Source: Raja brachyura (lineage: Eukaryota). From it: a stretch of DNA of 64,000 nucleotides. Of the stretch, positions 27,180 through 59,110 are shown one piece after another (within the stretch, counting starts at the first letter, position 1; the number at the start of each line of letters is the position of its first letter). The stretch covers positions 44,702,001-44,766,000 of the forward strand of contig OY740788.1 of NCBI GenBank assembly GCA_963514005.1, read 5' to 3'. A program made the position numbers and the translations under genes. The notes under the pieces were generated by a model. The model searched no databases, was not told where the DNA came from, and saw only the letters and a program-made list of their open reading frames with translations.

Positions 27180-27390
27180 TGTAGGAAGGAACTGCAGATG
27201 CTGGTTTAAACAGAAGAATAACACAAAATGCTGGAGTAACTCAGCGGGACAGGCAGCATCTCTGCAGAGAAGGCATAGGTGACATTTCTTCACAGACTGA
27301 AGAAAGGTCTCGACCTGAAGCTTCACCCATTCCTTCTCTCCAGAGATGCTGCCTGTCCCGTTGAGTTACTCTAGCATTTTGTGTCAATCT
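27180..27390. repeat. Palindromic (inverted) PLE pLTR remnant with central degenerate hammerhead
   Basis: cacaaaatgctggagtaactcagcgggacaggcagcatctct is inverted against agagatgctgcctgtcccgttgagttactctagcattttgtg; centre ctgaagaaaggtctcgacctgaagcttc. Confidence 0.8.
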
Positions 27391-27897: not shown

Positions 27898-28000
27898 TAA
27901 TTTTCAAAACATAGATACGTTAAGTGCTGAACTACACAGATGTTAACATAACAAACATCTGTGCAGTTCAGCACTTAACATATCCATGTTTTGAAAATTA
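27898..28000. repeat. Near-perfect fold-back inverted repeat (47-bp arms, 9-nt spacer)
   Basis: taattttcaaaacatagatacgttaagtgctgaactacacagatgtt / aacatctgtgcagttcagcacttaacatatccatgttttgaaaatta; 3 mismatches. Confidence 0.92.
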
Positions 28001-28087
28001 TCAGATTCTGTTGAGTTTCATCAGATTTCATCAGAATTTTAGTCACATTGAATCTATTGTCTCGACCCGAAACGTCGCCTATTGACC

Positions 28088-28124
28088 AGTCTGAAGAAGG
28101 GTCTCGACCCGAAACGTCGCCTAT
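28088..28124 (+). ncRNA. Minimal type I hammerhead ribozyme motif (PLE type)
   Basis: CTGAAGA-A-[GGGTC-TC-GACCC]-GAAA-CG-TC; helix I is weak. Confidence 0.65.
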
Positions 28125-28343
28125 CTCCTTCACTCCTTAGATGCTGCTGCACCCGCTGAGTTTCTCCAGCTTTTTGTGTAAACCCCCCCCAAGTCGCACT
28201 AGCTTCTCATTTTCACACCAGAAACAGCTTACAATGGCCTGCTTTCCTTATCACCAATACTTTTTTGCATATCTTTCACTCATTGTTCTTGCTTTATCTC
28301 TCCATATCACTGTTTATATCTCTCGTTTCCCTGATCCCTGACC

Positions 28344-28380
28344 AGTCTGAAGAAGGGTCTCGACCCGAAACGTCGCCTAT
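28344..28380 (+). ncRNA. Minimal type I hammerhead ribozyme motif (second identical copy)
   Basis: Same sequence, 256 nt downstream. Confidence 0.65.
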
Positions 28381-29051
28381 CTCCTTCACTCCTTAGATGC
28401 TGCTGCACCCGCTGAGTTTCTCCAGCTTTTTGTGTAACCCTTGAATCTATGTTTACCTCTTTTTATTGATTGAAAAAGGCAATTTCAATTATCAATTGCA
28501 CGGTAAGTTTTGGTGGTAACAATATAATGACTGAATTTTCTGTGCTCGAACAGAATAAATCCCAGCTGCTGCACAGTGAGAAACATAATGGAATGAGCCA
28601 TTTCTAACTTGCTGGCAAGTCAGTGCATGACCCACCTGGCCGTCTCCGTCACACAACCTCACTAACTCTTGCGCCTGCACAAATACCGCTGGCTTTTGCG
28701 CTTGTAGAATTACATGTATGCACACAATGTCACCAGCTGCACAAGTGTGGAACTCCTTGGGTATTTGCATGCATAACATAAAATCTGGCATAAGTTAAAT
28801 CTCCGACATCACTGACTATAAAACTGTCTAAGGTTTGCTGCTGACATGCTGACAACCCTACAAAGATTTTTGATAGTTATTGTGCATGAGGAAAAAAAAA
28901 CCCAGCTTTCTCTTCAATAACCTCAGAGATAAAATGTCAGAGGATTGAAGGCAAAGTTCAGAAGCTGCCCCAATATTTCACTCCCCATTCCCACTCTAAT
29001 TCTATGAAGATTATGTTTCTTAGTGTGCACAACAACAAACTACAAACAACA

Positions 29052-29500
29052 GAAGATGGATACAAAAAGTTGGAGTAACTCAGCGGGACAGGCAACAGCT
29101 CTGGAGATAAGGAATGGGTGACGCTTTGGGTCGAGACCCTTCTGCAGTTCCTTACCTTCTCTCCAGAGATGCTGCCAGTCCCACTGAGTTACTCCACCTT
29201 TTTTAGTCTATCTTCAGTTTAGACCAGCATCTGCAGTTCCTTCTTAAACAACAAACACCAATAGGAATTGTCACAACCTACCATAAATCAGACTGTGTAA
29301 ATCACAAAGTGCTGGTGTAACTCAATGGGTCAGGCAGCGTCTGTGGAGGGAATGGATAGGCGACGTTTTGGATTGGGAGCCTTCTCCCGGCCCAAAACAT
29401 CGTCTATCCATTCCTTCAACTGATGCTGCCTGACGCGTTGGGTTACTCTAGCACTTTGTGTTTCACTCAATGATTCCATCATCTGCAATTCCTTCTATTT
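29052..29500. repeat. Two palindromic PLE pLTR remnants (~29052-29248, ~29302-29500)
   Basis: ggagtaactcagcgggacaggc / gctgccagtcccactgagttactcc arms; hammerhead remnants gacgctttgggtcgagacccttc. Confidence 0.75.
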
Positions 29501-30439: not shown

Positions 30440-30545
30440 TTTCACTATAGCTCTGTACATGTGACAATAATAAACTAAACCAAACTAAAGTAAACTAAAC
30501 TCAACTAAACCAAACTAAACTAAACTAAACTAAACTAAACTATAT
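30440..30545 (+). repeat. LINE tail with (ctaaa)n microsatellite
   Basis: ttttcactatagctctgtacatgtgacaataataaactaaac followed by ctaaa repeats. Confidence 0.75.
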
Positions 30546-31394
30546 TAATTGGATGTAAATATGGTATAAGGACAGTTACTCAGTCCAAAATATTGTATTC
30601 CATGATCAGAGCTTAAGTTGTCATGTAATCATATATTTTACAACATATATTTAAAAGTGAAGAAAATGGCAGATGAAAATTAACTTGGATAAGTGTGAAG
30701 TAATGCATTTTACATAATAAAACAAGGCATTACATACACAGATAGAGGCAATAACAGTGGTGTGGAACGGAAGGTATGTGGCATACTTGCCTTAATTGGC
30801 AAAAGCATGAATACCTGATTTGAGGCGTCGTGTTAGAGTTGTACGAACCATTGGTTGGGTTGCATTTGGAGTATTGTGTGCATTTCTGGTCACCACGCTA
30901 CAGGAAAGATGTAATTAAGATGGAAGGGGTGCAGTAAAGATTCACAAGGATGTTGACTGGATTAGAGGATTTGGATAAAGGGAGATTGGATAGGCTGCGG
31001 TTGTTTTCCAGCGAACAAAGGATGCTGAAATGACGAGTCATAGAATCACACAGCACAGAATCAGGCCCTTCGACCCAACATACCCATGCTGTCAAGATGC
31101 CCAAACTGCTCTAGTTCCACTTGCACGCATTTGGTCTATAATCCCTCTAAACCTTTCCTTTCCATGTACCTGTCTAAATATCTTATAAATTGTTGTTGTA
31201 CCTGTAGCTGTAGTACCTGCCTCAAACATCTTTGATGCCTCATTCCAAATACCCACCACACACTGTGTGAAAAAGCTGTCCCTCGGGTTCCCATTAAAAC
31301 TTGCCCCTCTCATCTTAAACATATGCCTCTGGTTCTTGATTCCCCTACTCTGGATAAAAGACTGCAATCACCCTATCTATTCCCTTCATGACTT

Positions 31395-48994: not shown

Positions 48995-49215
48995 GGGACA
49001 CAAAGTGCTGGAGTGACTCTGCGGGTCAAGCAGTATCTCTGGAAAGCATTTCTTAGGTGACATTTCAGGTTGGGACACTTCAGACTGATCAATCTGAAGA
49101 ATGGTCCCAAGCCAAAACATCATCTATTCATGTTGTCCAGAGATGCTGCTTGACTCACTGAGTTGCTCCAGCAGTTTGTATCCTTTTGTGCAAACTAGCA
49201 TCTACAGTTCCTTGT
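48995..49215. repeat. Palindromic PLE remnant inserted in a LINE tail (~48880-49315)
   Basis: Inverted arms with cttcagact and atctgaaga hammerhead remnants back to back at ~49078-49100. Confidence 0.7.
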
Positions 49216-58769: not shown

Positions 58770-59110
58770 GGATGGAGACTAAAGGAACTGCAAATGCTGG
58801 AATCTTGAGCAAAACACAAGGTATTTGTGGGTTGCACAGCATTTTGGAGGGAATGGATAGGCGTCCCAATATAGGACGAAAAGCTTCGCTCAGCAGCAAA
58901 CATAGCAGAGTAATGAACAATTTGATGGACTTACCTTGGATCAATATAAAATACTTGAAAATAAACACAAAAAGCTGGAGTAACTCAGCGGGACAGTCGG
59001 CATCTCTGGAGAAAAGGAATGGGTGATGTTTCAGGTCGAGACCCTTCTTCAATCTCCAATTTGTTGTGTCTATCTTTGGTTTAAACCAGCATCACAATTC
59101 TTTCCTGCAC
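58770..59110. repeat. PLE pLTR remnants, mostly on the minus strand
   Basis: gctggagtaactcagcgggacag...gaatgggtgatgtttcaggtcgagacccttcttca (antisense hammerhead remnant). Confidence 0.7.

Follow-up and report, generated by a model that had tools for sequence, protein, structure and literature searches.

A two-hammerhead insertion in the genome of Raja brachyura is a probable ordinary by-product of a Penelope-like retrotransposon family

The locus described here raises a simple question, namely whether two hammerhead motifs enclosed by one TSD are sufficient to recognize a retrozyme. In the window, that is the whole 64,000-nt stretch of Raja brachyura DNA that was analysed (contig OY740788.1, positions 44,702,001 to 44,766,000), a preliminary description had pointed out two identical motifs 256 nt apart inside a 10-bp TSD and had read them as a retrozyme-like unit. 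Our results support another view: the locus is an ordinary by-product of a Penelope-like family and not a spreading circular-RNA element.

The insertion comprises 383 nt plus one copy of the TSD (Table 1). The window holds the 10-mer TTGAATCTAT at two positions only, 28048 and 28441, and the right copy begins with a T that is also the next base in the parent element. An empty site, in which 28047 is joined directly to 28441 with a single copy of the 10-mer, is seen in a related organism, in a contig of 1,313 nt from run X21, whose organism label differs from that of the run holding the insertion. Run X19, which may be the window's own sample, gave contigs covering the left flank through 28108, left junction included, and the right flank from 28419; the contigs of runs X1 and X2 cover the repeat only. 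These four runs come from a list of 24, all of them consisting of contigs, and the two guessed to be RNA bear other organism labels and do not reach the flanks. Given the contigs of run X19 and the empty site of run X21, an assembly artefact is unlikely. Inside the TSD, the repeats at 28083-28181 and 28339-28437 agree at all 99 positions and first differ at base 100, and their starts are separated by 256 nt. At 28059-28082 lies the 24-nt piece, an exact pLTR match placed 42 nt (not 256 nt) upstream, which ends in CTAT, as does the TSD. The TSD, the 24-nt partial repeat and the two 99-bp direct repeats, each with its hammerhead motif, were therefore confirmed as they had been described. The extra T at 28058 is likely untemplated, and the 24-nt fragment would be the last piece copied. 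No ORF of at least 100 aa runs across the element, and the order 3' UTR, hammerhead, junction, 3' UTR is not present at the locus.

The surroundings contain other repeats. Older pLTR copies in the window (Table 1) are 70-85% related and belong to other Penelope subfamilies, several of them forming palindromic pairs. Just left of the insertion, at 27898-28000, lies a MITE-like inverted repeat whose 47-nt arms are 94% complementary and enclose a 9-nt loop. An AAACT-type tandem repeat occupies 30462-30558, and the pLTR in locus L160 of the genome has a comparable run beside it.

Table 1. Positions of the features discussed in the text; plain numbers are window positions and those with a G000 prefix lie elsewhere in the genome
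Feature	Position	Strand	Remarks
Left TSD TTGAATCTAT	28048..28057	+	Sequence; empty site in run X21
Extra T and 24-nt pLTR fragment	28058..28082	+	Hammerhead stem II to 6 nt past the predicted cut
99-nt solo-pLTR unit	28083..28181	+	Family 5'-end hot spot to 3'-end site 1
Hammerhead motif 1	core 28091-28118	+	Predicted cut after 28118
157-nt spacer, read as 5'-truncated Penelope-like 3' UTR	28182..28338	+	Begins inside a C-tract
3' pLTR	28339..28440	+	Short 3' end of the family, without the ~35-nt tail
Hammerhead motif 2	core 28347-28374	+	Predicted cut after 28374
Right TSD	28441..28450	+	First T common to the next base of the element
Older pLTR copies	27215-27390, 29048-29219, 29294-29469, 194-324, 48998-49179, 58965-59051		
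Full-length tandem unit (L213)	G000:C2:3639000-3644700	-	4,043 nt
311-nt unit	G000:C1:162939573-162940480 (L194), G000:C1:28056231 (L214)		
328-nt unit	G000:C22:20179069-20180086 (L221), G000:C2:59590105 (L195), G000:C1:39474181 (L218)		
Cut-site arrays	G000:C1:74835287 (L230), G000:C1:117724508 (L238), G000:C2:55272483 (L250), G000:C16:40473355		

Both repeats read CTGAAGA-A-GGGTCTCGACCC-GAAA-CGTC, with predicted cuts after 28118 and 28374. The core, the extra A, stem II and the ACGU helix III can all be read from the letters, which bears out the proposal of a minimal hammerhead of the Penelope pLTR type. The caveat of a short helix I also held, since this helix has 2 contiguous pairs, then 3 mismatches, then 2 further pairs. 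With no loop 3 and 2 contiguous pairs in helix I, the motif lies outside the canonical type I, which has a 6-bp helix I and loop 1-loop 2 contacts. An Rfam scan of the window returned 0 matches at the gathering threshold, and the motif region, folded as a single strand, is no stabler than shuffles (z 0.2-0.4).

The origin of the spacer was more informative. In its own 2.7-Gb genome, the spacer is present at 90-100% identity at no fewer than 11 other loci among the 42 matches listed (40 scored out of 292 candidates), and it is 100% identical at 3 other loci. Upstream of the spacer, these other loci carry the end of a reading frame and not a pLTR; in L003, L005, L009-L011 and L213 it adjoins the 3' end of a GIY-YIG frame. 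In L213, a head-to-tail unit of 4,043 nt, an open frame of 774 aa immediately precedes the spacer, and spacer and repeat 2 together are 98.9% identical to both ends of this unit. The 774-aa frame matched RVT_1 (E 4e-4) and GIY-YIG (E 9e-4) in Pfam, both below the curated cut-offs, and the motifs YIDD and YIGETKR can be read in its translation. A 346-aa open frame of L213 lies in a different frame from the 774-aa one. The linker from RT to EN is Cys-rich (CNRKRCYTC); Neptune is recognized by a Zn-finger-like linker between RT and EN together with RT phylogeny (PMC8557442), and the clade may be Neptune-like, judging by the linker. At the scale of the genome, the context pattern joining 3' UTR and hammerhead has 12,137 exact matches, and the 35-mer downstream of the motif has 53,498. 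The frame upstream, the match to L213 and these pattern counts identify the spacer as 3'-terminal sequence of an autonomous Penelope-like element, one of the results that the preliminary description had named beforehand as refuting its reading. The parent family is a very abundant and young Penelope-like retrotransposon, in agreement with the recent event that had been proposed.

One explanation for the second motif is that 1.4 rounds were copied from a 256-nt circular RNA released by the hammerheads, which would make the locus a true non-LTR retrozyme insertion. Indeed, the two intact motifs lie in phase, and the size of the unit, its 45.7% GC and the long TSD agree with the description in PMC7229834: the 256 nt fall within the 150-450 bp range, are non-coding with GC <50%, and are accompanied by a TSD of 10 bp, longer than 4 bp. 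A circle, however, needs a donor with the same junction. The monomer junction, TGTGTAA joined to ACCCCCCCCAAG, had 1 match in 2.7 Gb, the window itself, in an exact search (0-12 nt of slack) that is blind to sister copies which have diverged or are not assembled, as compared with 4 and 6 matches for two control units, an amplified unit being expected of a retrozyme. The genome check for multimers and circular permutations that had been proposed thus yielded none with this single-copy junction, and a similarity search across it, with 40 of 292 candidates scored, returned only the locus itself. Moreover, the right end of the insertion and the linear parent share TAACCC(T), whereas a circle would give TAAACC, the sequence of the internal junction. 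Copying from a circle should have left 3' UTR upstream of motif 1, but the piece found there is offset by 42 nt and out of register. The motif is a minimal one of the PLE kind, whose helix I has 2 bp, and folding gives the putative circle no excess stability (-27.2 kcal/mol vs -30.7 +/- 4.0 for 60 shuffles, z +0.87). In 10.64898/2026.07.22.740005, 1 of 9 Xenopus dimers cleaved in vitro. Two features of the family presented below do speak for circles, the existence of shared-junction multimers and the preference of tandem junctions for the cut site; for the locus itself, we consider a circular template very improbable. The single-copy junction, the linear right end and the out-of-register 24-nt piece tell against a retrozyme-like unit copied from a circle. 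Of the two routes that had been offered for the ~1.4-mer arrangement, tandem pLTR formation is supported and copying round a circular template is not.

The structures of other copies were examined in the first 100 places listed for the 35-mer, which gave 106 matches in 85 clusters, all within the first 3.9 Mb of one contig (G000:C1, L074-L163) and with a few duplicated segments included. Nearly all of these copies (103/106) end at one of two sites ~35 nt apart, 61 at site 1, where our locus also ends, and 42 at the other, which matches the optional tail of 30-40 nt and the two internal RT start sites known from the Anolis element (PMC11167929). Their starts are similarly focused, 63 of the 106 lying inside a 13-nt window just 5' of CUGAAGA that would represent the RNA 5' end. 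Solo pLTRs of ~100 or 130 nt dominate the family, often as head-to-head palindromes. Since it runs from the 5'-end hot spot to site 1, repeat 1 is the commonest product of the family, a solo pLTR, set upstream of a truncated 3' end. An adjacent inverted piece was present in 24 of the 85 clusters. Four of the 85 contain two hammerhead pieces on one strand, with a junction particular to each: the script detected L080 and L091, and inspection added L089 and L160. Among tail-read-through loci, 12 of 30 had two same-strand hammerheads, at 12 different spacings of 191-1,275 nt; tail read-through itself had 622 matches vs 53,498, so that full-length copies are rare. Of 59 simple copies, a crude script assigned TSDs of 7-18 nt to 27 and left 32 with none. 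In contigs of runs X19 and X21, a pLTR end is likewise joined to different positions upstream. Three other insertions with unrelated flanks contain reiterated hammerhead pieces of ~40 nt that resemble the 24-nt piece, and L070, L072 and L073 have the same boundaries as repeat 1. Extrapolation from the 4 of 85 clusters, hence from sampling and not from a direct genome-wide count, indicates that the genome probably holds around a thousand two-hammerhead scraps. At L171/L172 (G000:C1:10468000-10468700), an inverted insertion carries a repeated 191-nt unit on its two arms, with one and the same junction.

The origin that we favor, and judge to be likely, is that the locus would be a single-copy, 5'-truncated Penelope-like insertion whose extra pLTR pieces came from two template jumps during one TPRT. 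Starting from what is directly visible, namely where the three pieces come from and how they are arranged, the TSD and the single-copy junction, the jump steps can be deduced from the junctions as follows. The element endonuclease would make a 10-bp staggered cut at an AT-rich site, and reverse transcription would start at a short internal start site (…TGTGTAACCC) and copy ~259 nt into the 3' UTR. A first jump would lead to the same start site in the 5' pLTR of the same or a second RNA, from which 99 nt would be copied to the RNA 5' end (run-off). A second jump would land just 3' of the hammerhead cut, and 24 nt would be copied before being joined to the target.

The middle junction has a second possible history, as an internal deletion in a full-length copy would give an identical join. 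A pLTR-ORF-pLTR copy might have lost ~3.8 kb internally, either as DNA after insertion or in the donor copy, leaving its pLTRs 256 nt apart, the 24-nt piece being then the usual 5' partial-tandem scrap. Repeat 1 does begin where full-length RNAs appear to begin, the 4,043-nt unit minus 256 corresponds to the deletion size, and ACCC is found near both breakpoints. We nevertheless hold this deletion to be unlikely: the join is blunt or has one extra A and is not a clean microhomology, full-length copies are rare, and the break lies 3 nt from 3'-end site 1, the end of 61 of the 106 copies, a position that fits re-initiation and not random loss. Slippage in second-strand synthesis or repair on one cDNA, with back-jumps of 42 and 256 nt, is barely plausible. 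A single 259-nt cDNA can supply all three pieces, and the CTAT end is common to the 24-nt piece and the TSD, but slippage leaves unexplained the boundaries of repeat 1, which are set by the RNA (5'-end hot spot and RT start site 1), as well as the same boundaries at L070, L072 and L073. The locus is likely a dead end that cannot be re-mobilised, since it is without the tail and the downstream ORF segment and the Anolis protein needs downstream RNA, a requirement borrowed here from the Anolis element.

Two units found elsewhere in the genome look like nascent retrozymes and, judged by their junctions and content, would be better candidates than the window locus. The junction of a 311-nt unit had 4 matches at 2 loci, with one array of three, and that of a 328-nt unit had 6 matches at 3 loci on 3 contigs, with arrays of four and about two. 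Both have kept the pLTR, the tail and >100 nt of the downstream 5' ORF region; the window unit is without the latter two.

The family also bears on the activity of its hammerheads. Among the 5' ends, 180 matches fall at the predicted cut vs 125 at +3 and 215 at +2, the +2 control being mis-specified since it admits the native base at -2, with which about three quarters of the sequences listed begin (by eye); total 5' ends at the cut thus show at most a mild enrichment. Direct junctions from site 1 to the cut region numbered 27 at 17 loci, and 14 of the 27 start exactly after GTC. When distinct starts are counted once per locus, 6 of 18 are at the base after GTC, and 1 of 18 lies >1 base upstream of the cut. 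The corresponding binomial p is 0.0008-0.006 (15 or 10 possible positions), or 0.006-0.05 with the neighbouring base pooled, these values being optimistic because the junction test was run after the arrays were seen. In the arrays, 60-65-nt units start exactly at the predicted cut and end at 3'-end site 1, and TSDs were seen at L230 and L238; at three loci viewed, the units measure 61-65 nt. Tandem junctions at the predicted cut site might possibly be a footprint of cleavage in vivo, and at the family level they suggest indirect support for this site. Their pattern is what run-off on a cleaved RNA would give; a similar one is predicted if RT stalls at the 3' border of the folded motif.

We propose tentatively, and with more doubt than confidence, that the minimal hammerhead would cleave in the germ line, that the cleaved RNA would serve as template, that run-off and jump would make the tandems, and that units with the tail and 5' ORF segment (311 and 328 nt) would re-mobilise as multimers, those that have lost them, such as the window locus, staying single. 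If this were true, the genome would record cleavage in vivo together with a birth rule of animal retrozymes from PLEs. Cleavage of PLE hammerheads in vivo is described as being without evidence in PMC4209133, and PMC11167929 found no reads at the cut site in Anolis. A thin literature check, limited to titles and abstract starts, gave nothing on point for genomic footprints of in vivo cleavage by Penelope hammerheads, and a search for Penelope hammerheads in skate or shark gave unrelated items only.

The locus in itself is of little weight, being one two-hammerhead scrap among many from a known retrotransposon class, and it calls for caution: a TSD that encloses two hammerheads in phase is not enough for a retrozyme. 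A family of >50,000 young copies, on the other hand, makes possible a genome-wide test of cleavage footprints and a test of which PLE pieces turn a derivative into a spreading retrozyme.

Partial tandems, inverted pLTRs and optional tails have been published for PLEs (PMC8557442, PMC3846280), and minimal hammerheads, inversions and PLE-derived retrozymes are equally on record (including PMC6765202). EN+ PLEs, and in particular the Anolis Poseidon PAc (PMC11167929), provide the mechanistic model, with two internal RT start sites and a need for RNA downstream of them. Like the skate family, they have RT plus GIY-YIG at the C terminus in full copies, a pLTR with a minimal hammerhead and two 3' ends ~35 nt apart, and they form partial tandems, inversions and TSDs of variable length. 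In contrast to these PLEs, both tandem partners at our locus are truncated, the ORF is absent and three pieces lie inside one TSD, and sharp-5'-end solo pLTRs dominate the skate family. The minimal type I hammerheads of PLEs (PMC4209133) likewise have an extra nucleotide between A9 and G10.1, a G10.1-C11.1 pair, a loop-less palindromic helix III (ACGU) and, in D. virilis, a 2-bp helix I, whereas stem II of the putative ribozyme at the locus is only 4-5 bp. Animal non-LTR retrozymes (PMC7229834, bioRxiv 10.64898/2026.07.22.740005) are similarly non-coding and PLE-derived, with GC <50%, a long TSD and two tandem motifs, the period at the locus being 256 nt. Unlike them, the locus has a minimal and not a canonical motif, 1.4 units, a single genomic position and a unique junction, and the 311- and 328-nt units fit this class better. 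The locus is a PLE fragment; it lacks the canonical motif and the amplified unit, two defining features of retrozymes.
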